DNA from: a virus
DNA length: 58,999 bases
Direction: 5' to 3' (one strand)
Virus genome (UHGV): UHGV-0092096
Under the pieces are notes generated by a model. The model had not been told where the DNA came from. It searched no databases and saw nothing but the letters and a program-made list of their open reading frames with translations. The position numbers and the translations under genes are program-made. Of this stretch, positions 17,081-43,852 are shown piece by piece. The number at the start of each line of letters is the position of its first letter. The first letter of the stretch is position 1.

Positions 17081-17281
17081 GTGTTTGCCCTCCGTTTTTA
17101 AAATTTGTTTTTATTATAGCGGAAACGGGGGAAAAAGTACTTACTAAAATTTTTATAATTATGCATTAAATTTTTTATTCGCATCCGTGAAAAATAGACG
17201 TAAAATATTATGTCTTTATTTTTTTGGATTGGACACACAATTTTTTGGTTGCGAAATGGCAAAAAGGAGGTAAAATTTTTT

Positions 17282-17902
17282 ATGTCATCTGAGATTGAAA
17301 GAGCACAGAATTTTGGCAACATGCTTGCAAAATCAAGAACAGATGCCGGAAAAACAAGAAAGCAAATGGCTCAAGCTCTCGGAAAGTCAGTCACTACAAT
17401 TCAGAACTGGGAATCCGGAATAGGTGAGCCTGGTTACAGAACACTTGAGAAATGGTTTTCGGTGCTAGGATTAAACATGGAAAAGTACATTCTCAGCTAC
17501 CGATACCCGGACAAATTCTTAACTATTGAAAAAGATACAGAAATCGAAAAGATGGTTGACTGTATTCATGCTTACATAAACGCAAACTACACTGAGCGAG
17601 ATATTCGTCAAATGGCTTACTGTATGTTCGGAGATACTGGTTCCTCATGGCACGAGCAATTAAATATGCTGACAGCTAACAATCACTGCTCTATGCGGTC
17701 GAGAGTGAATATCTGTCAAGCTGTTTACGACAACTTCCTTATGGAAAAGGCAAGAGGTGAGCTTGCCAATGAAGATAATATAATGCCTGACCTTGCTTCT
17801 TTGAATATTGCTTTGCAAAGAGGTCGTGAAGCCGCATGCGAAAGTAAGAACGGTTACACAATGACTGGTCAAACAAGAAAGAATAACAATAAAAAGAAAT
17901 AA
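17282..17902 (+). CDS. HTH (XRE-type) DNA-binding protein with C-terminal domain of unknown function; second lysogeny-strand regulator
   Basis: HTH segment RKQMAQALGKSVTTIQNWESG. RBS AAAAAGGAGGT. No S24 peptidase motif. Confidence 0.5.
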   Translation: MSSEIERAQNFGNMLAKSRTDAGKTRKQMAQALGKSVTTIQNWESGIGEPGYRTLEKWFSVLGLNMEKYILSYRYPDKFLTIEKDTEIEKMVDCIHAYINANYTERDIRQMAYCMFGDTGSSWHEQLNMLTANNHCSMRSRVNICQAVYDNFLMEKARGELANEDNIMPDLASLNIALQRGREAACESKNGYTMTGQTRKNNNKKK

Positions 17903-17955: not shown

Positions 17956-19026
17956 TTACTCAATCCAAGCCTGGAACTTGTCAATGAATCTGTATTTGTC
18001 TCCGGCATATCCGTCCATGCCACTTGCTTTCAGTGTATCGACCTGATCTGCGTAGAAGTTCTTGTTGTTCTGTACAGAAACTCTGTAGTGAACCATCTTG
18101 TACTTGTATCCTTCCGGTGTAATGTAGTACAGCTCAACTGCAAGAATCTCTGAACCATCTCCGAGGATTCCATTCTTCTTATCATTCAGATCATAGCTAT
18201 TACCGAATGTGAGGTATGGCAACCAACCATTCTTTCTTGTGTATACTCGGCAGCGGATACTTCCCTTGCTTACCTTGATAGCAAGCCATTTGATTGAGAC
18301 ATTATCACCTTTTCCAGCCCAGTCAATTTTATTAACTACTGGCGGCCACCATCTGTCTGTGAAAGCCTGATATGTGATATCGACCTGTCCTAAGTCTTTC
18401 TTCTCTGCTGGTTTAGACGGTGTTGCCGGTGCAACACTTCCACCAAGCTCCATGTAGCAATGGTTGACGTCTACTCTTCCACTGACTCCATCTACCTGTC
18501 CATCAGAAGCATACTGCCAAATAGCATACTGACCTTTGTATGTATCTTCCGGAAGATTCTTGTATCTTGCCATCCACTCAACATATTTTCCGCGAACACT
18601 GCCAAGATAGTTGTTGAACCAGCTTAAGGATGCGTAGATTCCCGGAGTATATCCAGCTGCTTTAAGTCCTTCGCAGACAATCTCACAGCATTTAGGTGCG
18701 TATCCCTGTGTGCCTGGTTCCTCAACATCAATGAAGATAGGTAACTGGAAGGTATGACCTTTAATCAGTCTTAAAATGTGAGCAAGCTCGCTCTGTGCCT
18801 GTCTGTCACAAGTTGCGTAGCTGTACAGATAGACTCCTACCGGGATTCCAAGTCTTTCGCACTCTGCAAGGTTGCGGATCCACTGTTTATCATCCTGTGA
18901 TGCGATATCGTCTCCGTAACCACATCTAAGAATAGCTCCGGCACAACCTGACGCCTTGACTCTTTCCCAGTTGATAACTCCATTATGATAAGATACGTCA
19001 ATAATCAGATTACTCATACCATCCAC
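17956..19026 (-). CDS. Endolysin: GH25 muramidase with C-terminal cell-wall-binding region
   Basis: N-terminal IIDVSYHNGVINWERVKASGCAGAILRCGYG matches the GH25 signature. Confidence 0.8.
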   Translation of the reverse strand: MDGMSNLIIDVSYHNGVINWERVKASGCAGAILRCGYGDDIASQDDKQWIRNLAECERLGIPVGVYLYSYATCDRQAQSELAHILRLIKGHTFQLPIFIDVEEPGTQGYAPKCCEIVCEGLKAAGYTPGIYASLSWFNNYLGSVRGKYVEWMARYKNLPEDTYKGQYAIWQYASDGQVDGVSGRVDVNHCYMELGGSVAPATPSKPAEKKDLGQVDITYQAFTDRWWPPVVNKIDWAGKGDNVSIKWLAIKVSKGSIRCRVYTRKNGWLPYLTFGNSYDLNDKKNGILGDGSEILAVELYYITPEGYKYKMVHYRVSVQNNKNFYADQVDTLKASGMDGYAGDKYRFIDKFQAWIE

Positions 19027-19285: not shown

Positions 19286-21886
19286 TTAGCTAATTAGATA
19301 ACTGGATAAATGCTTTATGAATATTTTCGCTAATTGCTTTTTCCCGTAATCATTCGGGTGTACCGTATCTGCGATATATGTTGCTCTGTTCCAACAGTTG
19401 ATGCCACATTCTTCAAAAATCGGAATATACTGAATGTTAAAAAACTCCGCAACATCTTTCGTTGCTTTTGCATAATCATAACTGGTTAGGTTTTTGCTAT
19501 TATAAACAGGAGTATCAAGGTTTTCTCCCGCGGTATTACCTCTACCACCACATAAAGAAGCTACAAATATTAACGCATTCGGACATCTGTTCTGAATCAT
19601 TCTTATAGTTGTAGCAAGTCCGCCTTTGAATTTTGTAGTATCAAATCCGTTTGAATACGTTAAATCTCCGATTTCAATACTTTGTCCGCAATCATTAGTT
19701 CCGCCCATTATTATAACAACATCACTGTCGGAAGAAATCGTATCAATTCTATTTTGTATACAAAAACTATCACCGTTTCTGTTATCAGCAACAGTTGTTC
19801 CGCCTATTCCTTTGTTTTCTATAATAAACCCAAAATAGTCTTTTAAATATGATTGCCAACCGCCATTTGCCGTTATAGAATCACCGTATGTTGTTAATTT
19901 TTTACCGTCAAAAATACTGTCAATTTTATTTGCTGTATCTACGGTAATACAATGTTCAACGAATACATTATCATTTAAAAGATACTGTCCAACTAAAGCA
20001 AGGATGTTTTTATCTGAATCTTGATTATCTGCAAAAAGCCATACATTTTTACAGATTCCGCTAATTCCAGTAGTAATATTAACCTCACTGTTCTTTTCAC
20101 GGAATCGGTTAAGTCCTAGTGTCCAATATATTTTGCTTGTTGCAAAACCATTCGTATTTATTCGCCCTAAAACTTTAAACGTTTTTTTAGCATTGTTTTT
20201 TAAATTTACATTTTCAAAATGAGCTAAATTTCCAGTTGCATATTTACCATCAGAATCGAGAACAGGGGCGTAATATATAACACCTCCATCTGGATTTCTT
20301 ATTACCAGCCCTTCTGATAAATACATGGAATTGATTTCGAAACCACTTTTGTTTTCAACTTCCAATTCGGCTACAAAAATATAATCTGTACCAATATTGA
20401 TGCTAGATGTATATGACGCTAAACTATCCTTATATCCTCTAAAATCTAATACACCATCCGATGCTATATTTTTAGTTGAAAATAATTTGGAATCAGTTAA
20501 CGGGTCAATACTATCTGCGTACTGCTTTATATATTCTTCATTCTTTTCTGTATAAATTTTATATAACCCATTTATCCCATTTTTTTTAAGATAATCACTT
20601 AATGTTGCTTTATTTGTAACATTATAAGCATAATAAGTGCCACTATATGGTGTATCTTCAACATTCAATCGTAAACTACCGTCAACAGTTATTTGTAGTT
20701 CACACATATTTTTCGAGTTCATTAGATTACTAATGTCAACCCAAGATGTAGTTAAGTTTCTAATACTAATATGGTCTGAAAATGTATCGAACAAAACAAT
20801 CCATTTTTCGCCAGCCTTTACATCTGCAATTTTTTGCGAATAGCCGGAATAATTTGCCACATGACCGATAGTATCGGGAATAGTAATTACCTCTTGAGTA
20901 CCATTCACCAAGTTATCTAAATCTTCTTTTAGCGAAGCAATTTTTTCTTTAGTTTTAATCCACTCATCTTCAAAATGTGTTGGATAATTAAATACTGTAT
21001 ATCCGTCTAACTGGTCGGATGTGACGGAGATGTTGGTTACTGGGTAGTAGGTGACAAAAGTTTGCAATTTAACTTGTATATCCCCAGGAAGAGGCTCAAA
21101 TATAGCATCTTGCAATCTGATATACATATCTACATCTATGGCTTTGGCAATTAATTCAGATTGTAAATAACCAATACTACGACTTAAAAGGTACAAGATA
21201 TTATTTTTTCCTTTATTATTTTGTAAAAAAGTGGTATTTGTAAAATTAGATATATAAATAACTCTTCTGGACTCTCCTACGGATTGATTACTGTAATATG
21301 TAATATCAGATACGCCTTCTACTTTATTCCATCCAGGATACTCTTCACTGTTATTCATAGTTTTTGTATTCGTATGGATTTCTCGGATATTTCTTTCGAC
21401 GCCAAATACACCGTCTTTTTCCGCAACTCTATCCGCAATATACTGCTGACCGTCAATAGTGACGTTGCCACCACTTGAGACTGGAATTGCGTTAAGGATG
21501 ACATTGTTAAGCGTAACAGATTGAACCTTTAATCCATCTTCATTTGTTACTTTAACTGTAGGATTTACCACACTCTTAATCTCAACTGGATTCTCTGGCG
21601 TTGGCGTTCCATCCTGTAATGATTTGCCATATATCATCATATCTTGAATCTTTCCATTATCAGAATCAGTAATATGAGTTTCACCCTGATTCGATGCATA
21701 GAACTTTGTAATTTTGGTGGATATATCTTCATTCAATTTATCTATTTGCTCTAACTTTTCTTTGCTTATTCCTCCTAAATCACCGTCAGACGGAGCCGGA
21801 GGGATCAGGGTTTTCTTTTCGATTTCACCCGTGTCTTTGTTCTTTACATTTAAAAATGCAGCTTTTCCAATATCACTCGTCGCCAT
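19286..21886 (-). CDS. Tail fibre / receptor-binding protein with C-terminal SGNH (GDSL) esterase domain
   Basis: C-terminal catalytic blocks LTTYGDSITANGG, IIMGGTNDCG and DTVHPN. Long N-terminal beta-rich region. Confidence 0.65.
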   Translation of the reverse strand: MATSDIGKAAFLNVKNKDTGEIEKKTLIPPAPSDGDLGGISKEKLEQIDKLNEDISTKITKFYASNQGETHITDSDNGKIQDMMIYGKSLQDGTPTPENPVEIKSVVNPTVKVTNEDGLKVQSVTLNNVILNAIPVSSGGNVTIDGQQYIADRVAEKDGVFGVERNIREIHTNTKTMNNSEEYPGWNKVEGVSDITYYSNQSVGESRRVIYISNFTNTTFLQNNKGKNNILYLLSRSIGYLQSELIAKAIDVDMYIRLQDAIFEPLPGDIQVKLQTFVTYYPVTNISVTSDQLDGYTVFNYPTHFEDEWIKTKEKIASLKEDLDNLVNGTQEVITIPDTIGHVANYSGYSQKIADVKAGEKWIVLFDTFSDHISIRNLTTSWVDISNLMNSKNMCELQITVDGSLRLNVEDTPYSGTYYAYNVTNKATLSDYLKKNGINGLYKIYTEKNEEYIKQYADSIDPLTDSKLFSTKNIASDGVLDFRGYKDSLASYTSSINIGTDYIFVAELEVENKSGFEINSMYLSEGLVIRNPDGGVIYYAPVLDSDGKYATGNLAHFENVNLKNNAKKTFKVLGRINTNGFATSKIYWTLGLNRFREKNSEVNITTGISGICKNVWLFADNQDSDKNILALVGQYLLNDNVFVEHCITVDTANKIDSIFDGKKLTTYGDSITANGGWQSYLKDYFGFIIENKGIGGTTVADNRNGDSFCIQNRIDTISSDSDVVIIMGGTNDCGQSIEIGDLTYSNGFDTTKFKGGLATTIRMIQNRCPNALIFVASLCGGRGNTAGENLDTPVYNSKNLTSYDYAKATKDVAEFFNIQYIPIFEECGINCWNRATYIADTVHPNDYGKKQLAKIFIKHLSSYLIS

Positions 21887-25742: not shown

Positions 25743-28700
25743 CTATGTTGTACTGAAACTGTATCCAGAGTTTCTACTTCCTCTTGACAGTTCCTTATTT
25801 ACTTTCTTGCTGTTCATCATCAGTGATGTATTCTTTCTAAGAAGTCTCTCATTCTGCTCGATAAGCTTCTGTAAAAGTCTTTCTGTATTTTTATTCGCTT
25901 CTGCAACTCCGTTGGATACTCCTGTCACAATCTGATTGTTGTTAGCAACCACGTTTCTATTTCCCATTCTTCCAACGTATTCCGGTGCTTTCTCATTCGC
26001 CACAAACAGCTCGCCATTCTGAGGGAATCCACCTACAGAATATTTCCCGACCACATCCGACAGTTTGAATGTTCCGATACCGTTTGCGTATCCTTTGTAT
26101 CCACGGGCAGTCCATCCAGCGTACAGACTTCCGTATTTTTTGACTGTGTAATTGATAGCGGCGATCATGTTTGACAGTGGATCGTAAATGTTTGTATTGA
26201 ATCCAGCCATCGCATTTGCACGGAATGTCGGGTCAATTACCTGCATCAGTCCTTTTGACGGAATACCTCTGATTGCGTTGATATCCCAGTTATTGATAGC
26301 GTTAGGATTTCCACCTGACTCATGCATCATCTGAGTTAACAAGGCATTCAGATTGGATTCACTGAACTGATTTGTCAGTAAAAGAGCTTGTTTCGCAAGT
26401 CCTCTCCACTGCTCCACTCCGGCAGATGGTTTGTAATCAACAGCACCGAAACTGTCAAAGAATCCTTTGATTTTGGAAACCGCTGTTTCAAACAGTGAAT
26501 TAACTGCCGTCTTCGCAAGTGTGATTCCAGGCTCAAGCGCTCCTGTCAAATCTGTGAATTTATCAATTGCAGCTTTAAGAAGCTTCTTCGGGTCTTTGAT
26601 GTAACTGAAAATGTTACTTGCAATATCGCTGATTTTTTCTGCTGTACTTCCAAAGAAATTACCGATTCCAGATTTATACTTCTTCACGCCAGTAATTCCC
26701 ATCAATGCTGCTGTTTGACCAGCTGGCATTACCTTTGTACCTTTTGGCATCGGAAGAACTACATTTCTTCCTTTTGGAATTACAGTCTGTCCGTTCGGAT
26801 ACTGGACAAGTTCTCTGTAGGTATTTCCTGACTGGTCATTGACAACGCCAAAGGAATCTCTCTCGACTCCGTTTGTACCGCTTGCGTATTTATCAAGTCC
26901 AGAAACGTTAATCAGATCGCCATCTCCACCTAATTTTCCGTAAACCCAGTTCACAGCCTTAGCGATTGCTTTTACTGCGCCTAAAACAGGGGATTTTATC
27001 CAATCTGCTACAGTATTGAAGTACCCACCAATCTTGTCAAAAATTGAAGTAATTCCGTTGTAGGCAGACTTAAAAATATCCTTAAACCACTGAGCAATAG
27101 ACTTCATATTTGACTTGATATCCTCACGTTTTTGACCAAACCAAGAACCGATGTTTGAAAATGCATTCGTTACGCCGCTTCTAGCAGCTTGAAATTTTTT
27201 CGAAAACCACTGTGCAATTGGTGAGAAAATCGCTGTAATTGTTCCGAAAAGTAATTGAAATAAAGATGAAACATATTGCTTAAATCCAAGCGCAATATCT
27301 TCTACTCCTTTCCAAGCCTTTCCCCAATCTCCAGTAAACGCACCTGTCACAAATGTAACCAATCCTTGGATTATCTCTATCGCTCCACTCACCATTCCGG
27401 TAATAGTAGAAACAACTTGTGCTATTCTTTTTATTATTATGGAAAGCACTGCTCCAATTGCTTTCACTGCGGCAATCATTGTTGATTCGAACAGCTCTTT
27501 CGCTCCACTTGATTCATATAAATCGTAAATAGAATTAAACAGTTCTTTTAGGTTCTCCCAAAGTGGTTTAAATCCGTTATCCCAAATTTCTTTTTTCGCA
27601 AAAGAAAATGCATCTCCAATTTCCCCAACAGCATTTTTTACAGCATCTCTGAATCCCTCAGATGTATTCCAAAGGTCTACAATCTCAGCAACAAATAGCG
27701 CAATTCCTGCGGCAATAACTGCAATTGGACCGAGTGAAATTCCACTGGTAATTTCTGAAATAATAGAAATTACATCTTTTACTTTTGACAGAGTGCTTAT
27801 AACAGGGGAAATTTTTGAAACGATTTCTCCAACAGCACCAACGCCAATAACCGCCGCAAGTATTCCTGTATTTTCACCACCGTCAGAAGCAAACTTGAAA
27901 GCATTCTTTATTCCTTCAATAATCTGTGATCCAAGTTCTTTCCAATTGGCATTCTGAATAAATGTTTTAATTGACTCTATTACAAGAGCAACCATTCTTC
28001 CGATGGATTCTCCGATTGTTCCAAGATTGATAGAATCTAACGCACCGTTAAAAGCATCAGCCAACGCCATTCCAATGTCTTCACCTTTAAGCTCTCTCAG
28101 AATCCCGACAAGGGTGTTCCAAGAAATCATAAAATACGCCCCGAGAGTGTATCCTATCGTTCCCCAGTCAATGTTTTGAATCCCTGTAGAAATAGCTGTT
28201 CCGATTCCTGTTCCAAGATTCGTCCAGTTAAACCCGGTAATCAAAAGCTGTGCAGTATTGAAGACCGTATTCACTCCGGCAGCAACAGTAGCTCCAATTA
28301 ATGGCCATTCAATATTGTCAACAAGGCTATTCATTGTTGTGGTAAAAGCATTGCAGAAATAAGTAATCTTTTCCCCATGCTTATTCCAGTCAAATATGTC
28401 ATACAATTTCTGCATTCCGGCATTTACGCCCTCTGCCATGATTGAGCCTAGAGAAGTCCAATCTTGAGCTTTGAACGCTTCTCTTAGCCGTTTAGCATAA
28501 TCAGAAATAGCTTTAGTCGGTTCAGTTGTCTCAAACATTTCAGAAACATCTGGTCCAGTATAAGCACCGGAACTTCCGTCAGAGCCACCACTTGAACTTG
28601 AGCTTGATGTTGTCGGCTGGATTACATTTAGTTCATCAATTCCAAGAGTATAGTTCTCAAGATCTTTTGCTGCTTTTGCTGCATCACTTCCAGCTTTTTT

Positions 28701-29804
28701 AGCACTACTTCCAGTGGATGTGAGTGTTTTTCCGTAGTCTTTCCATGCTTTCTTTGCTTGAACCACTGCTGTTTTTCCAGTCAATACAGCCATGAACTGC
28801 GCGACCTTATTCATTGCATTGGCGAGCATATCAATAAATGCTGAAATATACGGTCCGACTACATTGATAATCGGAGCAAAAGCAGCTGCCCATGCATTCT
28901 TCAAATACAGAAGAGATGTGACAATACCCGAAATGCTCTTGTTGTAATCAGAACTGTATTGAACAAGGTTGTTTGAACCTTCCTTGATTGCATTGTTTAT
29001 TGCGCTTAATGCTGAAAACACAGTGGAAAATACAAGTGACATTCCAAGCATTCTTCCCATTGACATTTGACCACCAGATTTGTTTGTTTTGGTAATCAAA
29101 TTCTTGAGGTCTTTTGCTTTAGAAACCACTCCACCAACTGTTTTCCCCATCTTCCCAAACGTATTGGAAAGAGATTTTGAAACTTTCTGAGTCCCTGAAA
29201 GAATCTTTGAAAGCTTAGACGCTTCTTTTGTCTCTTCTTCAGCAATTCCTTTGTCTTTATCTGGGACGATGCTCGAAAATCTTTGTCTCGTTTCTGCTCC
29301 GCTCAATACGGATTTACCATCAGATGCACCAAGTTGTCCGCTTGCCTTTTTGATGGTCTGAGCACTTGCTTTTAAACCGGAAGTTTTCTTTTTCAGTTCA
29401 TCGCAAGCTTTTTTTGCTGAATTAACCTCAGAAGAATCAACGGAAATTTTTATGCTTTTTGATGCTTCTGCAACTTTTTCCGAAAGATCTGTCACTTTCT
29501 TTGCGGCATTTTCTATGTCTCCAAGCTTGTTTACGCTGATTTTAATTTGCCGTCCATTGATTTTTGCCATATCTTTGGACATTGTTTTAATAGCGTTTTT
29601 TAAATCTTTTACATTCTTAAAATCAAGTTGAGAAATGCTATTGAGATTTCCAGTAAGTGCCTTTATTGTTGGTTGATAAGAGCAAACAGATTGAAGCTGT
29701 TTCGATACAGTACCTAATCTCTTTGCCAAATTAGTCAAACTAGCATTTGCTGACTTAGCCGACGCTTCAACTTTTACCTCAAGAGAGTCCACCTCTGTTC
29801 CCAT
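25743..29804 (-). CDS. Tail tape measure protein with C-terminal lytic transglycosylase (SLT) domain
   Basis: A 1353-aa helical repeat protein. SLT motif MMHESGGNPNAINNWDINAIRGIPSKGLMQVIDPTF near the C-terminus. Confidence 0.85.
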   Translation of the reverse strand: MGTEVDSLEVKVEASAKSANASLTNLAKRLGTVSKQLQSVCSYQPTIKALTGNLNSISQLDFKNVKDLKNAIKTMSKDMAKINGRQIKISVNKLGDIENAAKKVTDLSEKVAEASKSIKISVDSSEVNSAKKACDELKKKTSGLKASAQTIKKASGQLGASDGKSVLSGAETRQRFSSIVPDKDKGIAEEETKEASKLSKILSGTQKVSKSLSNTFGKMGKTVGGVVSKAKDLKNLITKTNKSGGQMSMGRMLGMSLVFSTVFSALSAINNAIKEGSNNLVQYSSDYNKSISGIVTSLLYLKNAWAAAFAPIINVVGPYISAFIDMLANAMNKVAQFMAVLTGKTAVVQAKKAWKDYGKTLTSTGSSAKKAGSDAAKAAKDLENYTLGIDELNVIQPTTSSSSSSGGSDGSSGAYTGPDVSEMFETTEPTKAISDYAKRLREAFKAQDWTSLGSIMAEGVNAGMQKLYDIFDWNKHGEKITYFCNAFTTTMNSLVDNIEWPLIGATVAAGVNTVFNTAQLLITGFNWTNLGTGIGTAISTGIQNIDWGTIGYTLGAYFMISWNTLVGILRELKGEDIGMALADAFNGALDSINLGTIGESIGRMVALVIESIKTFIQNANWKELGSQIIEGIKNAFKFASDGGENTGILAAVIGVGAVGEIVSKISPVISTLSKVKDVISIISEITSGISLGPIAVIAAGIALFVAEIVDLWNTSEGFRDAVKNAVGEIGDAFSFAKKEIWDNGFKPLWENLKELFNSIYDLYESSGAKELFESTMIAAVKAIGAVLSIIIKRIAQVVSTITGMVSGAIEIIQGLVTFVTGAFTGDWGKAWKGVEDIALGFKQYVSSLFQLLFGTITAIFSPIAQWFSKKFQAARSGVTNAFSNIGSWFGQKREDIKSNMKSIAQWFKDIFKSAYNGITSIFDKIGGYFNTVADWIKSPVLGAVKAIAKAVNWVYGKLGGDGDLINVSGLDKYASGTNGVERDSFGVVNDQSGNTYRELVQYPNGQTVIPKGRNVVLPMPKGTKVMPAGQTAALMGITGVKKYKSGIGNFFGSTAEKISDIASNIFSYIKDPKKLLKAAIDKFTDLTGALEPGITLAKTAVNSLFETAVSKIKGFFDSFGAVDYKPSAGVEQWRGLAKQALLLTNQFSESNLNALLTQMMHESGGNPNAINNWDINAIRGIPSKGLMQVIDPTFRANAMAGFNTNIYDPLSNMIAAINYTVKKYGSLYAGWTARGYKGYANGIGTFKLSDVVGKYSVGGFPQNGELFVANEKAPEYVGRMGNRNVVANNNQIVTGVSNGVAEANKNTERLLQKLIEQNERLLRKNTSLMMNSKKVNKELSRGSRNSGYSFSTT

Positions 29805-33963: not shown

Positions 33964-35052
33964 TTACGCTACTTTCATAACAACAACGCTGTTCATTCCC
34001 TCAAATGATGGAAGACCAATCATGGATACTACGCAATGAGTATTGATTGGATGCTCTGTTGCATATGTGTAGACAGAAATACCAGTTTCAACAAGTTGCA
34101 GATTTCCTCCGGCGAGATCTCCGCTTCTCTCTTCCGGTGTTCTTCCGAATACGTAGTCTCCAAGATATACTCCTGCTGACTGACAAGAGATAATGTTTGT
34201 TGGGATGAAGTACTGTGTTGTTCCAGCTTCATCAACATACATCTTGTCGTATACCTCGATTTCGATTCCGTACTCTCTCAGATAAGAAAGAACATCTGCC
34301 TGTCTTACTCTGATACCGCCGTTGTAAGCAGTAATTCCGAGTACCTGTTTCTTTGTGTCTTCTGCTTTCAGAATCATCTCAAATGTCTCTGTATTCATAG
34401 AGAATCTTGTCAGGGAATATCCTGTCTTCTTTGCGAAATCACGTCTTGTGTCAATCAAGTCTTGAAGTGGTGTTGCTGTTGCCGGAACATTCCACTTATC
34501 AGATGTTCCTTGAATTTCAACGAAGTGATCTGCCTTGTGCTTTGCTCCATTGTCTGTTGTGTAATCAATTGTGTATGTCTTGTCTTTGATTTTAACAGTA
34601 ACTTTCGGAACACCGTCTGACGGAGCAAGTAACTGCCAAATCTGTCTCTCAGGAACTACCATCGCTCCTTGAATCAGATTCATAGGTTTCTTGCTAATCT
34701 GTCTGAGTACTTGATTTGCAAGATTTGAGTTTTCAGCAGACTGATAGTTCGCATACTGCTGCTCCTCTTTTTCTGTAACCATGTAGGACTCTCTGTAGAA
34801 CGGCATTTCGTTCTGGATATCCTGGAATCCACCGACATCTCTTAATTCTGCCTGTGCATCAAAGTTGGATGCTTTCAGAGAAATTGGCTGAGAATTTTCA
34901 CCAAGGATATATCTCATTTCCAGTGAATCCTGTTTTGTTGTTCCAAATTTCTGTCTCCCAAGATACGGTGGAAGTGCAAGAGACGCTTTGTAGTTATCCC
35001 ACATAACTCCAAGACTTCTCGCTGTAAATGCTTGACTTAATGGTAATGCCAT
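33964..35052 (-). CDS. Major capsid protein
   Basis: A 362-aa protein downstream of the scaffold and portal; size and position are typical. Confidence 0.6.
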   Translation of the reverse strand: MALPLSQAFTARSLGVMWDNYKASLALPPYLGRQKFGTTKQDSLEMRYILGENSQPISLKASNFDAQAELRDVGGFQDIQNEMPFYRESYMVTEKEEQQYANYQSAENSNLANQVLRQISKKPMNLIQGAMVVPERQIWQLLAPSDGVPKVTVKIKDKTYTIDYTTDNGAKHKADHFVEIQGTSDKWNVPATATPLQDLIDTRRDFAKKTGYSLTRFSMNTETFEMILKAEDTKKQVLGITAYNGGIRVRQADVLSYLREYGIEIEVYDKMYVDEAGTTQYFIPTNIISCQSAGVYLGDYVFGRTPEERSGDLAGGNLQLVETGISVYTYATEHPINTHCVVSMIGLPSFEGMNSVVVMKVA

Positions 35053-36157: not shown

Positions 36158-36400
36158 CTATCCTAATTTCTGCCAACTCTTTGTCTCAGAGTTGAATTTG
36201 TATAATTCCGATGTGTCTAACATCAAACAGGAACTTCCTGCATCTACATAAGTCGGGAGCTTATCAACATCTTTTGACTGAGCTTCATAGCTTCTAACAT
36301 TTCCCGATGCTTCGGTACAAACAATGCTCCCCATATCCGGCACATCTGTTCCCGGAGGATACGTCTGTCCGTCTTGTTTTACTGTGTAGTTGTATTTCAT
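36158..36400 (-). CDS. Hypothetical small protein
   Basis: ORF in chain. Confidence 0.4.
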   Translation of the reverse strand: MKYNYTVKQDGQTYPPGTDVPDMGSIVCTEASGNVRSYEAQSKDVDKLPTYVDAGSSCLMLDTSELYKFNSETKSWQKLG

Positions 36401-37866
36401 TTTGTTACCTCCGGCGTTTTGTTGCCATTCAAATTCTGATTGTTTCCTAGTTTTTGATTCTGATTAGAATTATCATCTATCTGATTTTGCTTATTTTCAT
36501 CATCAGAAGTCTTGTAAAGCACATCCAGATAAGGCTTGGACAGAATGTAAGCTTTTTCACTATCCGGGAATAATGTGCTAAGCTCATATGCAAGTTTCGG
36601 ATGAGTGCCGTCTTTCAACAGGTAGTCCAGAAACTGTGCCTTTACTAGCATATTATCCATAGGGCTGTGATTAATAATCACTTCAAACTGGCTCGTATCA
36701 ATAGGACATTCATTTTTCCCTTTTCTTACACGAATAATATTCAAGATAACTTCATTCAGTCTTTGTTCTGACTCTTGAATAATCGGGTCTTTCAGTTTTC
36801 CTCTCGTCTTAGCCATATCCCATCCGTTGCGGAGTTGTACCGCCCCTTGAGTGTCACCACCTGTGTTTCCTTCAAGTTTAGGAATGGCAAGAATCTGTAG
36901 GATATTATCCAGCAAGTCTTGTTTTGCAACCTGTGACTGAGTTTGATTTAGCTCCTGTGTCATAATATCAACATCAGCCTTATTGTCAGTACCATTGTTT
37001 GATTTAACAACAAGAGCACCTTCCATTTTCATCTGTTGGAATGTCTCATGGTCAACTGTACAGTTTACAAATTTTACCCAAGCACTAACAAACTGTTCAA
37101 TGCTGTCCATTCTGTTTGACTGCATATTGTTAATTGCATCAAACATGGATGCTACAAGCTCAATATCAGAAATTCTCTCAAAATTGTTTGGGTATTCAAC
37201 AATAGGGATTCCACCAAACGCATGTACACCCCATTGTTCAACTTTTCCGTCTTTGATAATGCATTGGTTCGTTTTCGTGTGGCATGACTTATACCATTCA
37301 CCGTTCAAGTCCTTTAATTCTTGAACGGAAACAAGCGGTTCTTCCGTAATAGATGAATAAATGATGTAAGTATTCATGGGAGTTGGAACTGTAATTCTGA
37401 ACGGCATTTTTTCTCCAGGTTTTTCAAACTGAGCAGCTAAAAAAGCTGTTCCAGTTGCCGACTGCCACTCACCAGCTCTGATATTTCTAGCATGTTTATG
37501 AGCACGTCTAAAATAATTATTGAGCACGTCAACATATTCGCTGATATTTTCCTTTACAATACTCACGCACTGCAACGGTTCTCCATATGACTGTCCAACT
37601 TTAAACTGAACTGCTTCATAAGCGTGATTCTCTACTACTTTGTTTACCACATCATCTCTGATCGTCTTTGTACGGTACAGAATCGGTTGATCTCCTTTGT
37701 AGTAGTCCCACAAATATTTAGTAACTTGTTTGTTAAAGTAAAAGATTCCAAGTGTTTCTCCTACAACTTCCAAAATATTGCTTTGATCAACCTCTTCGAC
37801 ATTCGCATATGCAATTTTTCTTCCGTATTTGCCTTTTACAAGGTCTTGTAGAGTATTCTTGTTCAT
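36397..37866 (-). CDS. Portal protein
   Basis: A 489-aa protein immediately downstream of the terminase region; SPP1-like arrangement. Confidence 0.6.
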   Translation of the reverse strand: MNKNTLQDLVKGKYGRKIAYANVEEVDQSNILEVVGETLGIFYFNKQVTKYLWDYYKGDQPILYRTKTIRDDVVNKVVENHAYEAVQFKVGQSYGEPLQCVSIVKENISEYVDVLNNYFRRAHKHARNIRAGEWQSATGTAFLAAQFEKPGEKMPFRITVPTPMNTYIIYSSITEEPLVSVQELKDLNGEWYKSCHTKTNQCIIKDGKVEQWGVHAFGGIPIVEYPNNFERISDIELVASMFDAINNMQSNRMDSIEQFVSAWVKFVNCTVDHETFQQMKMEGALVVKSNNGTDNKADVDIMTQELNQTQSQVAKQDLLDNILQILAIPKLEGNTGGDTQGAVQLRNGWDMAKTRGKLKDPIIQESEQRLNEVILNIIRVRKGKNECPIDTSQFEVIINHSPMDNMLVKAQFLDYLLKDGTHPKLAYELSTLFPDSEKAYILSKPYLDVLYKTSDDENKQNQIDDNSNQNQKLGNNQNLNGNKTPEVTK

Positions 37867-38248: not shown

Positions 38249-38671
38249 TTACAGATAGTAAGAGCCGAAAAGCTTCTCAAACTCTTGTAGTGCTCTTCCA
38301 TGGATTGACATCGCACCTCTAAACGAGCATTCCATTTCCGAAGTGATCGTTTTCCAGTTTTTGCACAAGACATATCTGTTGTACAGTACTCTGTACTGAT
38401 TTGTGTTTGTAATCATCTCAATCTGTTGAGTGATTTCCCTCTTTTTTTGAAAAGAATGCTCAATAGATTCCGCAAGCTCTACTTCTGCATCAGCAATTTT
38501 AGAGACAAGGCTTCCCATTTTGTCAGGTTCTCCGCTGCTCTGAACATTAACCTCTTTTAGAGACACAGAAATAGAACAAGCCATATCTCTCAACTGATTA
38601 ATTTCTTCAACTTTGTTTTTGATTATAAAATCTAACTTTGAAATCTGTCCTAAATATGTTTTTGTATCCAT
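38249..38671 (-). CDS. ArpU/RinA-type (sigma region-4-like) late transcription regulator
   Basis: C-terminal TITSEMECSFRGAMSIHGRALQEF resembles a sigma-70 region 4 HTH. Confidence 0.45.
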   Translation of the reverse strand: MDTKTYLGQISKLDFIIKNKVEEINQLRDMACSISVSLKEVNVQSSGEPDKMGSLVSKIADAEVELAESIEHSFQKKREITQQIEMITNTNQYRVLYNRYVLCKNWKTITSEMECSFRGAMSIHGRALQEFEKLFGSYYL

Positions 38672-40416
38672 TATCTGTATCCCCCTCTAAACGGATTGTG
38701 TACCGCTTCGACTCTTGGTGGTTCCCATGTTCCCTCAATAAAATATGCAAGCGACGCAAGGCAGTCAGGAGAGTCTTCGTGCTTGTTTTTCCCCTTAATG
38801 GTAAAAGAGTACAGATTCCTCATAAAGTTCCTATATTCTTGATTTCTGAACCCAGTATCGCGAAAATAGAACTCACGTATAGAACCAGCTTTGTCCCAAA
38901 TTCTCTGGCTTTTTCTCATTGATGTAGGTGCATATTGAGAGACAAGAGTTACCTTATGTCCTTTTTCTCTCAGCATTTCGTCTACTTCGTCTTTGTATCC
39001 TTCTCCACCTTGGTTTGACTCAAAATACACACTTCCTATATTGTGATCAATAATCATATTCACAACTTTTGGCTTTGTGATTTTCTTTTCTGAATTATCA
39101 AAAATGACATCATCAATGTATATGGACCCGTCTTCGTACATGTAAGCCACAGCAAATGCCAAGTAGTCTTCACCTCCGAGAGCCACATCACATGCAGCGC
39201 AAATTCTATATGGTTCTTGAGCTGGGAGCACTCCATTGTAGAATCTCATGTGTTCTTGATTGAATACAGCTCCGTCCCTTTCAATAGGTTCCTGCTGGCA
39301 CTGTGCATACCATCCGGCCATATCATCGTTTTCTTCAAATTTTGCACGTTTGATCCTATAGAATTTTGTTGAAAATCCAACTCCATAGTCATAATCAAAG
39401 TTACTTTCATCTGTAACTGGATCAAGTGCTGGAATCTTCAAAATATCATACCTGATATCTTTTGCCTCTGGATTGTTCTCTAAGAAATCCAATCTGTCCA
39501 TGTAGATATCTTTCAGACTCCAAATTGTACCGTTATAGATTATTTTGCATTTCTCTTTCTTACGTGTCATTACGTTGTTGTCAAAGATAGTCTGCTTTCT
39601 TTTGAGAACATCTGGGTTTAAAACATCCTGAATACCCTCGATAATGTCATCAACAATTAGCCATCCATACGCATCGTATTCGCCGTTAAGTCCGGATGTA
39701 AGTCCTTTTCCGGAAAGAGATTTATATTTTTTCTTTCTTCCTAAATCAACCTTATTGTTTTTTAAGTCAGTATCTTTGATAATTCCTTTTGGGAACACCT
39801 CTTTAAAGCAATAAGTCGGGTCAGTCCATATTTCCATAACTCCATCAAGGAACGCGCTTCCAAGGCCCTCTTTGTATGTTACGTACAAATTGCTTGCTTC
39901 CATATCTCTAGCGCATTTCCATGAAGTCGCGAGCGTAAGTTCTTGGCTTTTACCAACACGGGCCGGCATATGAACAAACAGTTCATCCAATAAATCGTCT
40001 TCAAGCATCTGAATCTTGTCAGTTACCAATTTCAGTGTTTTTCTTCTCGGCTCGTAGAATCTGTCTCTTCGTTTTCTGTTTTTTTCCACATACAGCATAT
40101 AGCTGTCAAGAATTTCCTGTGCTTCTATTTTCAAAATCTTATAATACTGATTAATCAAATCAAACTCTGTCTTATTCTGCTGTGCATAATCTTCAAGCCA
40201 CGCAAAATCTCCACCGTTTGTCTGTTTTTTTATGATTTGATTGACAATCTGCTTTGCTCTATCAGAAACTTGCAATCCGTACTTTATGTCTTTCTCTTGC
40301 TCAAATGCAGTCTGAACCGCAAGGATGTACGCATCAAGCACCTGTTCGTCAATACCTTTACGCTCTATGTAATTTTCATACCCTTTTACGGTTTTAATCA
40401 AATAATCGCTCGCCAT
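38671..40416 (-). CDS. Terminase large subunit
   Basis: Walker A-like HMPARVGKSQ ATPase block and a C-terminal nuclease region with acidic residues (DSPDCLASLAY). Confidence 0.85.
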   Translation of the reverse strand: MASDYLIKTVKGYENYIERKGIDEQVLDAYILAVQTAFEQEKDIKYGLQVSDRAKQIVNQIIKKQTNGGDFAWLEDYAQQNKTEFDLINQYYKILKIEAQEILDSYMLYVEKNRKRRDRFYEPRRKTLKLVTDKIQMLEDDLLDELFVHMPARVGKSQELTLATSWKCARDMEASNLYVTYKEGLGSAFLDGVMEIWTDPTYCFKEVFPKGIIKDTDLKNNKVDLGRKKKYKSLSGKGLTSGLNGEYDAYGWLIVDDIIEGIQDVLNPDVLKRKQTIFDNNVMTRKKEKCKIIYNGTIWSLKDIYMDRLDFLENNPEAKDIRYDILKIPALDPVTDESNFDYDYGVGFSTKFYRIKRAKFEENDDMAGWYAQCQQEPIERDGAVFNQEHMRFYNGVLPAQEPYRICAACDVALGGEDYLAFAVAYMYEDGSIYIDDVIFDNSEKKITKPKVVNMIIDHNIGSVYFESNQGGEGYKDEVDEMLREKGHKVTLVSQYAPTSMRKSQRIWDKAGSIREFYFRDTGFRNQEYRNFMRNLYSFTIKGKNKHEDSPDCLASLAYFIEGTWEPPRVEAVHNPFRGGYR

Positions 40417-40979: not shown

Positions 40980-41171
40980 CTAAAACAGACAAATATGCTT
41001 AAATCCATGCTCAATGTCGTTTTCTTCAAAGAATCTATTTGCATCCTGTCTGTCATTGACATTTTCAAGACATTTCTTCGCTTTTTCAATGCGATCTAAA
41101 AGAATTTTTGCTTCTTTTTCAACTTCGCTTAAAGAATTTTCTGATTTTTCTTTCCACTCTTGAATATTCAT
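40980..41171 (-). CDS. Hypothetical small coiled-coil protein
   Basis: Start at MNIQEWKEK with RBS AGGAAG. Confidence 0.35.
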   Translation of the reverse strand: MNIQEWKEKSENSLSEVEKEAKILLDRIEKAKKCLENVNDRQDANRFFEENDIEHGFKHICLF

Positions 41172-41173
41172 AA

Positions 41174-41365
41174 CTATTTCTTCCTTTCGAACAGTTCTTC
41201 CGGCAATGTTTCTCCCATCCAAACCATTCTTAGATATTTGCGGAATGTAGGAGTACAGACACCCATTTTCTTTGCCGCTTCATCCATTGTAATTTTATGG
41301 CTGCAATAATCATTGATAGCATCGACGAAATTGTCTCTGTCAAGCACCTTGATTTTTCTTCCCAT
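41174..41365 (-). CDS. Small HTH protein
   Basis: KITMDEAAKKMGVCTPTFRKYLR has an HTH-like pattern. Confidence 0.4.
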   Translation of the reverse strand: MGRKIKVLDRDNFVDAINDYCSHKITMDEAAKKMGVCTPTFRKYLRMVWMGETLPEELFERKK

Positions 41366-41403
41366 CGGAACCTTCCTTTCTTCACATTTCCATTTTTTTC
41401 AAA

Positions 41404-41475
41404 CAAGCGTAACTGGAATCGAACCAGTACATCAGGAGTCAAAGTCCTGTGCTCTACCATTAAGCTATTACGCCC
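41404..41475 (-). tRNA. tRNA-Gln (anticodon UUG) with atypical acceptor/D-arm junction
   Basis: Minus strand shows D-arm GCTTAATGGTAGAGC, anticodon stem CAGGA/TCCTG with loop CUUUGAC, and a T-arm ACTGG-TTCGATT-CCAGT. The acceptor pairing needs G-U pairs or one extra nucleotide. Confidence 0.5.
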
Positions 41476-41479
41476 TTAG

Positions 41480-42205
41480 CTGCAAGAAATTTACCTCGAA
41501 AGCCGTAAGGAATTCTTGCACTGCTACGGTTCTTTATAATATTGGAGTTTATTATATGATCGATAAACCACGTCTTTTATTAACAAAACGTTAGTTTCCG
41601 AGTTTCAGCGAACTCCGCAGCTAAAACACTGATTGAATTTTAATTCAAACATGATTAGGGTTTCCCCTTATTCAATCATGGTAAAAGTCATATTCTGCCA
41701 CTGTGATGATAGGTCTGAGCTTCTGAGAGCGACTCTTGGCTTCCTACCACTGTCTAAGCACACATAGGATTGATACCCATAAATTTCACGGTTCTTTCAG
41801 AAGAATATGTTTTGCATCAATGGATTTCATTTCCACTGCAATATCTTATCAAAACTTGCCATACCGCTACTTTAACGAATTTCTTGTGTTATACCCTGAT
41901 TTCTCAGGCTCAAGGCAAATCAGCTTATTGAGAATTTCCATCTCTGTTGGTGGTCTCTCACACCACGAACTAAATGGATTATTTCTGCACCGCAGACGTC
42001 TATTAATCACTGACCACAAGGATTCTGCATTTGACTTCTCTATGATGATACACTGCAAGGCATTGTTGACGGTTTCCGTCTTCACCAATGGAATCACTCC
42101 TAGTGGAAAGAATCAGCTTATCCAATATCTCGAACAAGCCTATCTCGTTACCATTGCATCTCGGCATGACTGAAAAATCACTCTTCACCGAGATAATCAT
42201 GTTTG
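41480..42205. ncRNA. About 720 bp of hairpin-rich non-coding sequence between tRNAs; candidate large structured ncRNA (ROOL/GOLLD class?)
   Basis: No credible ORF in any frame. Many local hairpins (e.g. GTGGTctctcacACCAC). Bounded by tRNA genes inside a prophage. Confidence 0.3.
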
Positions 42206-42207
42206 AA

Positions 42208-42287
42208 TTTCCGTATAAGGAGTCGAACCTCAATCTTTCGTCCGGGTAGGGTAAGAACGAACGCTTTACCAATTAAGCTATACGGCT
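42208..42287 (-). tRNA. Aberrant tRNA-like gene (80 nt): canonical D- and T-arms but a 15-nt anticodon loop and two acceptor mismatches; possible pseudo-tRNA
   Basis: D-arm TAGCTTAATTGGTAAAGC and T-arm TGAGG-TTCGACT-CCTTA are present. The anticodon stem TTCGT/ACGAA encloses TCTTACCCTACCCGG. Confidence 0.35.
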
Positions 42288-42350
42288 TCCAGCTACACTG
42301 TAGCAAGGAAAGTAAGTTATGAAAAAGTTTTTTCTCCGAAACTCGGAGAG

Positions 42351-42424
42351 AGCTACCGTTCGGATTCGAACCGAAAACCTGTTGATTCGTAATCAACTGC
42401 TCTATCCATTTGAGCTATGATAGC
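42351..42424 (-). tRNA. tRNA-Arg (anticodon ACG)
   Basis: Acceptor GCTATCA/CGGTAGC (6 of 7 bp), D-arm GCTC-AAATGGATA-GAGC, anticodon arm GTTGA-TTACGAA-TCAAC, T-arm TTCGG-TTCGAAT-CCGAA. Confidence 0.7.
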
Positions 42425-42544
42425 ATTTCACGGTTTTTGAATTATTTTAATCACTTTAAACTTATAGGAATCAAAACTAATCTAAAGGAAAATGGCATAT
42501 TTACTGCACATAGGGCGCGTACATGAGGGGTGTTTCTGAGAACC

Positions 42545-42800
42545 GTGAAACTCAGAACGCCAAAAGGAGGATTCGAACCTCCAATTCCTTTATGGTATTG
42601 TGGCTTACGACTGGGTGAATCGTCATTCAATTACTTGCATGTCATCAGCAAAACCAGTCTTAATTACGTCAGATTACAATCAACAACGATATTCTGACGG
42701 CACCGATTTCAGAATCGGTCAAACCTACCGGGACTTGTGACGTCCCTTTGTTCATCTTTCCGCTAGTAGGTGGAGAATCGTCACATGGACGAATATATAA
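42545..42800 (-). ncRNA. Structured RNA (~250 nt) ending in a tRNA-like T-arm plus acceptor 3' half (GGAGG-TTCGAAT-CCTCC-TTTTGGCG)
   Basis: Several perfect hairpins (GGGACgtcacaaGTCCC; ACCGATTctgaaAATCGGT; CGTCAGA...TCTGACG; GACTGG...CCAGTC). No matching 5' acceptor strand and no tmRNA tag ORF. Confidence 0.35.
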
Positions 42801-42830
42801 AACCAAGTATTAGTAAATGTCTTAATTAGT

Positions 42831-43079
42831 TTATTCTTTCGGCATTGTAATTCCGAATCCCAGAAATCCGACAAAAATGATTACCGACATAACAATCACT
42901 GATAGAAATGCTTTTACGATTGTTGTCCAAATAATCGCTGCTGTAAGTTGTCCTGCATCCCAAGCTACGCAAGCTGTAAAAATCGGTTTAAACAGGAGAT
43001 CATAACCTCCGAAATAAAGTCCTCCGGCAACTCCGGCAACTAGAAATGCAATTGCCAAAACCCATCTTAATTTCTTCAT
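42831..43079 (-). CDS. Small membrane protein (2-3 TM)
   Basis: Hydrophobic helices VLAIAFLVAGVAGGLYF and FLSVIVMSVIIFVGFLGFG. Confidence 0.45.
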   Translation of the reverse strand: MKKLRWVLAIAFLVAGVAGGLYFGGYDLLFKPIFTACVAWDAGQLTAAIIWTTIVKAFLSVIVMSVIIFVGFLGFGITMPKE

Positions 43080-43184
43080 CTTCTCTCAATCCTTTCTCAA
43101 TATCTCAAAATGTAATACATCGATGCTCTTCTATCCGCTGTCCAGTCTTATGACCAGCCGGGCAGTAATACCAACCATTAGAAA

Positions 43185-43574
43185 TCATCGCACTGGATTT
43201 ACACAATTTTCAGTATCATCACCACGAAGCATTTCTACAACATCTTGAAAGCAATCGATCTCAAACATTGAAACTACTGTGTTTCTGATACCATATGATC
43301 TTGCAATTTCAAATTCAGCATTGCATCCACTAAACGGACTACAATAGCAAACTCCAATGAATAAATCCGCTTTTGAAAGTAGCTCAATGGATTTTCCAAG
43401 ATACCACACTGCGGGATTTTTAGTACCGTCACTCGGCTCTTCTGAAATAAATGTATCAATGACTTCTAACTCTTCTCCAAACATTGCTTCTGCAATATCC
43501 TTCATCTGCTTGAATGATTTCTGAATATTTTCTTCTGTGCGTCCTTTCATTGGAACGCTAATAAACAGTTTCTT
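43185..43574 (-). CDS. DUF4406 / nucleoside 2-deoxyribosyltransferase-like protein
   Basis: MKKLFISVPMKGRT...NPAVWY...ADLFIGVCYCSPFSGCNAEFEIARSYGI pattern (PM-G, NP-W, D, G-E). Confidence 0.45.
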   Translation of the reverse strand, partial: KKLFISVPMKGRTEENIQKSFKQMKDIAEAMFGEELEVIDTFISEEPSDGTKNPAVWYLGKSIELLSKADLFIGVCYCSPFSGCNAEFEIARSYGIRNTVVSMFEIDCFQDVVEMLRGDDTENCVNPVR

Positions 43575-43579
43575 CATGA

Positions 43580-43852
43580 TTAATCCTCCTGTTCTGCTTT
43601 CCACTTAGCCACTCTGTCACACATGATTTTTCGAACCTTTTCCTGAGTCATGTCTTTTGGAAATGTGGCAGATATTAGGATCATGCACCCATCATACGTA
43701 ATGCTATTTTCAATTTCATTTCCACCAAATGAATTAAACGGGTCGATCCAATATATGTTCTCCAACGTTCTGTAATCAAACGCTGCATCATAGCATAAAC
43801 TAACATCCTCATTGGTCTCACATTGAATTTCGTCTGTGTCATATACTTCCAT
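43580..43852 (-). CDS. Hypothetical protein
   Basis: ORF in chain. Confidence 0.4.
   Translation of the reverse strand: MEVYDTDEIQCETNEDVSLCYDAAFDYRTLENIYWIDPFNSFGGNEIENSITYDGCMILISATFPKDMTQEKVRKIMCDRVAKWKAEQED

Follow-up and report, generated by a model that had tools for sequence, protein, structure and literature searches.

ROOL RNAs (Rfam RF03087; Weinberg et al. 2017) have been visualized by cryo-electron microscopy (cryo-EM) in 2025 for three homologues, env-120, Enterococcus faecalis and Ligilactobacillus salivarius, and in all three they form cages consisting of RNA only, which are octamers in env-120 and E. faecalis and hexamers in L. salivarius (PMC12286853; PMC12990946; PMC12191101). 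In the homologues studied by cryo-EM, a disordered, non-conserved linker sits inside the cage, and a conserved kissing contact of L8 with J6/8, termed bridge B4, joins neighbouring ROOL chains (PMC12286853). ROOL genes are described as lying 'near' or 'within' tRNA arrays, with which they are possibly co-transcribed (PMC5737381; PMC12990946), and the L. salivarius ROOL is cited as non-essential in PMC12286853. No function of ROOL is reported in the literature searched. Here we describe a ROOL locus on the minus strand of the virus genome UHGV-0092096, analyzed as one stretch of 58,999 nucleotides (hereinafter, the window). The reading that we consider very probable is that of a ROOL RNA that would form a cage by homology, would be excised from a tRNA array, and would play an accessory role in lytic growth.

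Two other phage RNAs are comparable with this system. GOLLD is likewise a large ornate phage-borne RNA located beside tRNAs, and it also forms RNA-only cages (PMC12286853, PMC12990946); however, it is unrelated to ROOL in sequence and fold, and some GOLLDs carry a tRNA inside the RNA, whereas in the window a tRNA-like element is found outside the closing helix and not in the linker. The pRNA of phage phi29 is another phage RNA that forms a symmetric homo-oligomer via intermolecular loop-loop pairs (PMC12286853, PMC12990946). It differs from ROOL in size (about 120-174 nt), in forming a ring on the portal, and in being essential for DNA packaging, whereas ROOL forms a cage that is closed and lacks any known protein partner, and it is dispensable. 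For the ends of the RNA, the closest precedents are mitochondrial tRNA punctuation, the mascRNA of MALAT1, and the tRNA-miRNA units of gammaherpesvirus 68, in which a tRNA shape at the border recruits RNase P and RNase Z and frees a non-tRNA RNA; such handles need the acceptor and T arms, not a working anticodon. Both enzymes recognise the acceptor/T-arm domain, and RNase Z cleaves CCA-less precursors directly after the discriminator base. These eukaryotic, organellar and viral handles are experimentally proven, whereas at the present locus the basis for such a proposal is junction geometry and selective decay of the anticodon arm.

The following features define the ROOL gene in the window.

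41637-42216, minus strand: ROOL RNA gene (extents of the RF03087 match; pairs and covariation in 44 sequences)
41642-42209, minus strand: structured core of ROOL from P1 to P1, 568 nt (refined pairing)
42195-42209, minus strand: 5' strand of P1, AAUUCAAACAUGAUU, paired with 41642-41656 to close the entire ROOL fold
41642-41656, minus strand: 3' strand of P1, AAUCAUGUUUGAAUU

The ROOL model matches the minus strand at 41637-42216 with 375.7 bits (gathering score 99.1, E 1.9e-86), and the match runs end to end over model positions 1-574 of 574. Its length of 580 nt is close to the family mean of 581 and lies within the about 500-660 nt expected of the family. A scan of the whole window with Rfam 15 at gathering thresholds returned four matches, ROOL and three tRNAs, and a permissive scan at E<=1 over 41000-43200 added a sub-threshold tRNA and noise only. 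This stretch is a bona fide ROOL RNA gene, and its identity is essentially certain. It resembles the family in the full-length model match, the size, the multi-junction fold closed by P1, the variable linker, the kissing motif, and the location in a phage tRNA array, and no family-defining feature differs. What sets its lineage apart from other ROOLs is the fusion of P1 to a tRNA-like element whose anticodon arm is decayed, and a conserved 3' element of about 160 nt outside the Rfam model. As Rfam detects this ROOL outright, the finding itself is of modest interest, and the copy adds nothing to the family definition. Seven of its relatives, including the most divergent one, independently score 265-377 bits with the Rfam model. 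The closest fetched relative is 95.5% identical, and no identical copy was found among the fetched relatives. A blastn search in 'distant' mode with 41400-42830 against 50,697 GenBank phage records produced only two tRNA-Arg matches, in Rhodococcus phages; thus, no close relative is deposited there.

The original prediction, made from the letters alone, had placed at 41480-42205 a hairpin-rich non-coding stretch of about 720 bp, devoid of credible open reading frames (ORFs), within a tRNA cluster, and had proposed a single large RNA of the ROOL/GOLLD class. The hairpin-rich and non-coding character was confirmed, as was the tRNA cluster, whose flanking members are all on the minus strand. The large non-coding RNA also stands, but not as one element, since the region comprises ROOL and a separate element of about 160 nt (41476-41636); moreover, the ROOL core passes the predicted right-hand limit by a few bases and reaches the tRNA-like element, and the strand is now assigned. 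With regard to the class, the ROOL half held and the GOLLD half did not: the ROOL model matched full-length on the minus strand, whereas GOLLD gave no match either at its gathering score in the whole window or at E<=1 in 41000-43200. The genomic context and the size class of GOLLD are identical to those seen here (PMC5737381); nevertheless, as all 580 nt are explained by ROOL, the probability that the RNA is a GOLLD is negligible.

The fold is supported both thermodynamically and by comparison. The minimum free energy (MFE) of the 580-nt core is -169.9 kcal/mol vs a mean of -140.5 kcal/mol for dinucleotide shuffles (z = -4.65), and none of 100 shuffles was as stable. For comparison, 120 loci were collected from IMG/VR by a ROOL sequence motif and 80 more by the terminase (L numbers below denote these and further related loci), and nhmmer with the window ROOL as a query found homologues in 137 of these 200 loci. 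Alignment A1 comprises the window copy and 43 non-redundant relatives (44 sequences), and the Rfam consensus structure was mapped on it via the window row. Raw transfer of the Infernal consensus to the window gave 116 canonical pairs out of 154, with a register slip of 1 nt in P1 and in four other helices beside indels; the NC line of Infernal marks negative-scoring mismatches only. The register was corrected helix by helix by choosing the best offset on the 44-sequence alignment, after which 139 of 151 pairs (92%) are canonical in the window. For P1, the offset of -1 from the Infernal alignment yields 85% pairing across the 44 sequences vs 39% at offset 0, and the window sequence has 15 consecutive complementary positions in this helix.

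In the refined alignment, (i) 90.3% of cells are paired, a percentage somewhat inflated by the choice of the best offset, compared to 33.5-42.7% with partners slid by 1-3 columns and to a mean of 81.7% in column shuffles, (ii) 94 of the 151 pairs are changed on both sides, a count that is not inflated in this way (22-32 when slid; 53 +/- 3.4 in shuffles), (iii) there are 671 compensatory cells (46-113 when slid; mean 198.9 in shuffles), and (iv) the covariation score is 0.343 (0.04-0.09 when slid; mean 0.173 in shuffles). None of 500 column shuffles reached the observed value of any of these measures. Covariation in homologous phages is thus strong, and the ROOL fold is kept by compensatory substitutions in the lineage of the window.

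These data also bear on two readings that dispense with a ROOL RNA. The stretch might be a mere 5' leader, a promoter, or a cos/pac region of the packaging operon, its hairpins being regulatory or DNA-level signals. Its position, some 1.2 kb ahead of the large terminase gene and separated from it by a small helix-turn-helix (HTH) ORF, is indeed one in which late promoters and packaging sites are often found. Such a role is very improbable given the full-length, high-scoring match to the covariance model of a discrete RNA family; furthermore, G-U pairs and strand-specific covariation indicate an RNA of the minus strand, and there are related phages that share the terminase and lack the whole region. 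A protein-coding function is still less credible and can be considered extremely unlikely. An open frame of 145 codons does exist at 41736-42173 on the plus strand; however, it has a TTG start, is antisense to ROOL, and runs against the direction of every neighbouring gene. None of the ORFs over ROOL (145 aa on the plus strand; 89 aa and 76 aa on the minus strand) has a Pfam match at E<=0.01, in line with the predicted lack of credible ORFs. Substitutions in the relatives keep the RNA pairs and not the reading frame, and 1-2 nt indels occur often.

Two parts of the window ROOL correspond to elements known from the solved cages.

41794-41861, minus strand: variable internal linker of about 68 nt, flanked by the invariant GUAGCGGUAUGGCA and UCUGAAAGAACCGUGAAAUUU (columns 379-469 of A1, which are unalignable)
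41956-41959, minus strand: GAGA in the 9-nt hairpin loop GUGAGAGAC, complementary to UCUC at 41930-41933 (the B4 kissing motif)
41930-41933, minus strand: UCUC in the joining region that follows, complementary to the loop GAGA

The linker of the window copy is wholly unlike the linkers of ROOLs that are 90-93% identical elsewhere (L121, L122, L124 and L125), which suggests that the linker is exchanged or hypervariable. Part of its sequence is shared by L141. GAGA/UCUC is the motif of the conserved bridge B4; by sequence alone, it is compatible with intermolecular as well as intramolecular pairing. Most relatives have the same GAGA/UCUC, and compensatory variants are GAAA/UUUC (L151 and L037) and CGUG/CACG (L116). 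By analogy with the homologues, the window ROOL likely self-assembles, protein-free, into a closed homo-oligomeric cage with the linker inside, an octamer or, as in some homologues, a hexamer. For the self-complementary kissing loop of bridge B6 (L15-L15''), inspection of the 3' domain without the published figures at hand revealed no conserved palindromic loop; AGCU at ROOL nt 496-499 is palindromic, yet it is inside a helix according to Rfam.

ROOL is embedded in an array of the same strand that consists of two tRNA genes, one tRNA-like element and one tRNA remnant.

41404-41475, minus strand: tRNA-Gln(ttg), the first gene after ROOL and the ROOL-associated 3' element (ARAGORN; Rfam tRNA, 62.5 bits)
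42210-42285, minus strand: tRNA-like element directly 5' of ROOL (Rfam tRNA, 42.4 bits; ARAGORN calls a poor 80-nt 'Lys(ctt)' at 42208-42287)
42350-42424, minus strand: tRNA-Arg(acg), an upstream member of the array (ARAGORN; Rfam tRNA)
42558-42604, minus strand: remnant of tRNA-Ser(gct) (Rfam tRNA, 24.8 bits, below threshold; no ARAGORN call)

The tRNA-like element has a 7-bp acceptor stem, a D arm with GG and the D loop UUAAUUGGUAAA, and a canonical T arm with a UUCGA loop, GGUUCGACUCC, and it does not encode CCA. Its discriminator base is 42210, and the very next base, 42209, is the first base of P1. In place of a canonical anticodon arm with a 5-bp stem and a 7-nt loop, the MFE fold shows a 7-bp stem and an 11-nt C-rich loop, and the Lys(ctt) proposed by ARAGORN has two mismatches in its 5-pair stem. 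The stability of the element as a whole does not exceed that of shuffles (z = -0.30). Among close relatives, the stem of the anticodon arm shows covariation (G-C to A-U), and neither L122 nor L124 receives a call from ARAGORN; the elements of L124 and L126 have shrunk to 61 nt by deletion of the entire anticodon arm. The relatives' elements (L122, 4430-4508; L124, 4640-4700; L126, 5218-5278) still score 49-55 bits with the Rfam tRNA model despite the altered or deleted anticodon arm. The element is also retained in phages without ROOL. The loss of a normal anticodon arm, with the acceptor and T arms kept as the parts recognised by RNase P and RNase Z, fits retention of the element as a handle; it may have been kept for processing after the loss of its decoding function. 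Pairing of its C-rich loop (CCUACC) with GGUAGG at ROOL nt 469-474 was considered and dropped, as it is not conserved in the L128 lineage.

Elsewhere in the array, the tRNA-Ser remnant has preserved the acceptor and T arms, with an acceptor mismatch, and has lost about 36 nt with the anticodon and variable arms, which are present in all eight close relatives (L121-L127 and L145). Upstream of the array, about 225 nt of non-coding sequence with several hairpins (42605-42830, minus strand) are conserved among close relatives, and L122, L124 and L125 have an additional insert of 100-140 nt in this region. This stretch has no Rfam match, and the stability of the leader fold (42690-42830) does not exceed that of shuffles (z = -0.37). 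In the ROOL-bearing arrays of relatives (L021, L001 and others), ARAGORN also calls unusual tRNAs, which may be suppressor, frameshift or decayed tRNAs. In L118, a 'tRNA-Stop(tta)' abuts ROOL; anticodons of four bases were called in the Clostridium prophages (caga; L201 2552-2627 and L202 2311-2386) and in L087 (cccc), and 'anticodons' of two bases occur on the downstream side of the 3' element.

On the other side, the gap between ROOL and tRNA-Gln is filled by a second conserved element, in which hairpin A is followed by a variable stretch rich in A and U, a strand with complementarity to loop A, hairpin B, GCUAAG, and the tRNA.

41476-41636, minus strand: ROOL-associated 3' element, about 160 nt, conserved and covarying
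41605-41632, minus strand: hairpin A, with a 6-bp stem UCAGUG/CGCUGA and a conserved 16-nt loop, UUUUAGCUGCGGAGUU (covariance model R1)
41523-41529, minus strand: CCGUAGC (within AACCGUAGCAG), complementary to GCUGCGG of loop A at 41615-41621, a candidate pseudoknot or long-range helix
41481-41520, minus strand: hairpin B, UGCAAGAA...UUCUUGCA, shortly before tRNA-Gln

As MAFFT failed on the short variable stems of this element, per-sequence scoring and a small covariance model were used. Among 61 distinct copies, the stem of hairpin A has 10 different sequences, every one of which is fully paired; in the model-fitted alignment, 96.3% of cells are paired vs 35-48% when slid, and all six pairs are changed on both sides. 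The pairing of loop A with the downstream strand is 7/7 in all 61 copies, and it occurs in two forms only, GCUGCGG/CCGUAGC (50 copies) and GUUGCGG/CCGUAAC (11 copies), which are never mixed. Hairpin B has at least seven unrelated stem sequences in other lineages, with a hairpin at the same place each time. Model R1 has a sole match in the window (45.3 bits, E 4.3e-9), and its matches are confined to ROOL loci or their deletion derivatives, with none in about 50 ROOL-less phages with related terminases. A scan of the whole of IMG/VR by two spacer motifs alone retrieved 48 loci: 38 with a ROOL ending 12-64 nt upstream, one truncated, and nine without ROOL. No Rfam family matches the element; with the spacer alone at E<=10, the only matches were at chance level, to an archaeal sRNA and a snoRNA. 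In the lineage abutted by tRNA-Gly(ccc), hairpin A occurs a second time, with a weaker score (22.4 bits, E about 0.02), upstream of ROOL and inside the array (L128 979-1006, L130 3251-3278, L053 979-1006, L068 2709-2736). The 3' element may extend ROOL at its 3' end, serve in maturation or stability, or be a leader of the downstream tRNA.

The junction of the tRNA-like element with P1 is an instance of a recurrent arrangement. In a survey of 110 distinct ROOL loci, a same-strand tRNA was found within 1.5 kb upstream in 106 loci and downstream in 103, and no flanking tRNA was antisense. The 3' end of the upstream tRNA lies at -4 to 0 nt from the start of P1 in 61 loci, a T-arm motif occurs at a fixed distance of 18-21 nt before P1 in 68, and a tRNA starts within 10 nt after P1 in 45. 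No fewer than 12 anticodons are represented among the abutting tRNAs (Met, Trp, Gly, Tyr, Lys, Asn and others), and the tRNA-ROOL geometry is identical in the prophages of Clostridium sp. In the lineage of the window, the downstream tRNA is located 166 nt past P1 and is not adjacent. The simplest reading of the nucleotide-exact abutment across these loci is excision of ROOL from the transcript of a tRNA array, which makes its maturation by tRNA-processing enzymes plausible from the sequences compared.

The same survey provides some ground for the opposite view, in which ROOL is transcribed independently, with a promoter and a 3' end of its own, the abutting tRNAs reflect shared insertion sites or array shuffling, and the 3' element acts as a stabilising or terminating structure. 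There are 31-150 nt between the upstream tRNA and P1 in 38 of the 110 loci, and the downstream gap is 31-200 nt in 45; in L. salivarius, ROOL is a discrete, extremely abundant RNA of 520 nt with ends mapped by circular RACE (rapid amplification of cDNA ends). Against this view, the discriminator-then-P1 junction is nucleotide-exact in 61 loci with at least 12 anticodons, and the tRNA that abuts ROOL in the lineage of the window is decayed in the anticodon arm alone. A consensus scan of 41000-43700 found four promoter-like sites (shuffle mean 7.5) and three terminator-like sites (1.9 +/- 1.5 in shuffles), none of them plausibly specific to ROOL or rightly placed, although a simple sigma-70 consensus may miss phage or Clostridial promoters; hairpin B has no trailing U-run. 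On balance, an independent unit seems rather unlikely.

Under excision from the array transcript, which we prefer, ROOL would be co-transcribed with the tRNAs of the array and released by tRNA-processing enzymes. Cleavage by RNase Z directly behind the discriminator of the tRNA-like element (42210) would place the 5' end of ROOL at 42209, the first base of P1, and the cut of RNase P at the 5' end of tRNA-Gln (41475/41476) would set the outer 3' limit. The product would be a precursor or a mature RNA of about 734 nt with the 3' element included. The stronger version, in which the entire 734-nt interval 42209-41476 is one processed RNA composed of the ROOL core and a conserved, pseudoknotted 3' module not described before, liberated by RNase Z and RNase P, with the upstream tRNA-like element retained solely as a processing handle, is a tentative proposal that we hold with some doubt.

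Several points weigh against the combined reading, in addition to the partly inflated pairing percentage. The 110 loci are biased to human gut phages and were gathered by one ROOL motif and a related terminase. As tRNA-Gln is 166 nt past P1 and not adjacent, it gives no more than an outer limit for the 3' end of ROOL in the window. The L. salivarius ROOL is a megaplasmid gene, and the study in which its ends were mapped is silent on adjoining tRNAs. The B6 loop was not located, since the published numbering could not be mapped without the figures, and therefore the oligomeric state, hexamer or octamer, is not predictable. Finally, beyond identity and fold, everything said here of the window ROOL is deduced from sequence comparison; our confidence is highest for cage assembly, lower for processing by tRNA enzymes, and lowest for the accessory role in lytic growth.

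Natural deletions give an indication of how much the phages depend on ROOL. Among eight phages whose terminase is 99-100% identical to that of the window, four lack ROOL. Two types of deletion were observed in nine loci altogether. In the first type (L123, L127, L145, L211, L213, L214 and L218, with some sequence divergence among them), a mini-ROOL of about 60 nt keeps the tRNA-like element, the 5' strand of P1, six bases, the last hairpin, and the 3' strand of P1. In the second type (L126 and L206), the loss is complete: hairpin A directly follows the tRNA-like element, and the deletion ends at short AATTCA repeats. The window ROOL is bordered by a direct repeat of 8 nt, AAATTCAA, at 42203-42210 and 41633-41640 (minus strand), at the start of P1 and just past its 3' strand; this repeat coincides with the endpoints of complete loss in L126 and L206. 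It more likely mediated this deletion; a mobile ROOL cassette with AAATTCAA as a target-site duplication was rejected, because other lineages lack such repeats. Since near-identical phages have deleted ROOL, it appears to be dispensable for the viability of these phages, in agreement with L. salivarius.

Such repeated loss in near-identical phages might indicate that ROOL is a structurally intact passenger or relic in a fast-shuffling tRNA array, of no benefit to the phage, and the decay of the neighbouring tRNA-Ser to a remnant and the non-essential ROOL of L. salivarius, as cited, would suit this view. It is contradicted by clear purifying selection on the fold, with the 94 compensatory pairs distributed across lineages 77-95% identical to the window copy, which itself retains its 92% of canonical pairs and the conserved tertiary/quaternary motif. 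We therefore regard a passenger as improbable. By its covariation, ROOL is under selection wherever it is present, and the preferred reading would assign to it an accessory function in lytic growth, plausibly tied to the tRNA/translation economy of the infected cell.

The window represents the genome of a temperate phage of the siphovirus type and has a GC content of 38.9%. Gene identities come from PHROG searches of the window proteins.

76-1458: serine integrase
6284-7591: DNA methyltransferase
12709-13521: exonuclease
14731-15480: anti-repressor
17210-17902, strand opposite to the others: CI-like regulator
17956-19026: endolysin
19286-21886: tail fibre
25743-29804: tape measure
33964-35052: major head protein
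36397-37866: portal
38671-40416: large terminase
41174-41365: HTH protein of 63 aa between the tRNA/ROOL block and the terminase

The tRNA/ROOL block occupies the junction of early/replication genes and packaging genes, just upstream of the terminase, and of the 80 loci anchored on the terminase, 26 have ROOL upstream of TerL. Relatives of the terminase are found in prophages of Clostridium sp. OF03-18AA and AM30-24 and in metagenome-assembled genomes of Lachnospiraceae. The predicted prophage of a low-GC Firmicute is thus borne out in the temperate phage genes, the GC content, and the Clostridium/Lachnospiraceae relatives, but not in the integrated state, as no bacterial host flank was recognised in the window. 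The stretch (1-58999) looks complete or nearly so at about 59 kb, almost all genes are on the minus strand, and a lysogeny switch lies near 14.7-17.9 kb; several IMG/VR relatives measure 57-62 kb.

ROOL is among the few large bacterial and phage RNAs that have a solved structure, an RNA-only cage larger than the ribosome, and no known function. The nucleotide-exact fusion to a tRNA offers a testable account of how the ends of ROOL are formed and ties ROOL to the tRNA programme of the phage. The covarying 3' element, which has no counterpart in Rfam and was seen next to ROOL only, may be a partner of this RNA or an extension of it. Near-identical phages with a full ROOL, a mini-ROOL, or none, together with the related ROOL-bearing prophages of cultured Clostridium sp. 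isolates, permit a loss-of-function comparison without genetic engineering. If the 734-nt interval were indeed a single RNA, a subset of the family would be 'extended ROOLs' with an additional module that could control cage assembly, stability or cargo, and the mini-ROOL and ROOL-null phages would be ready isogenic controls.

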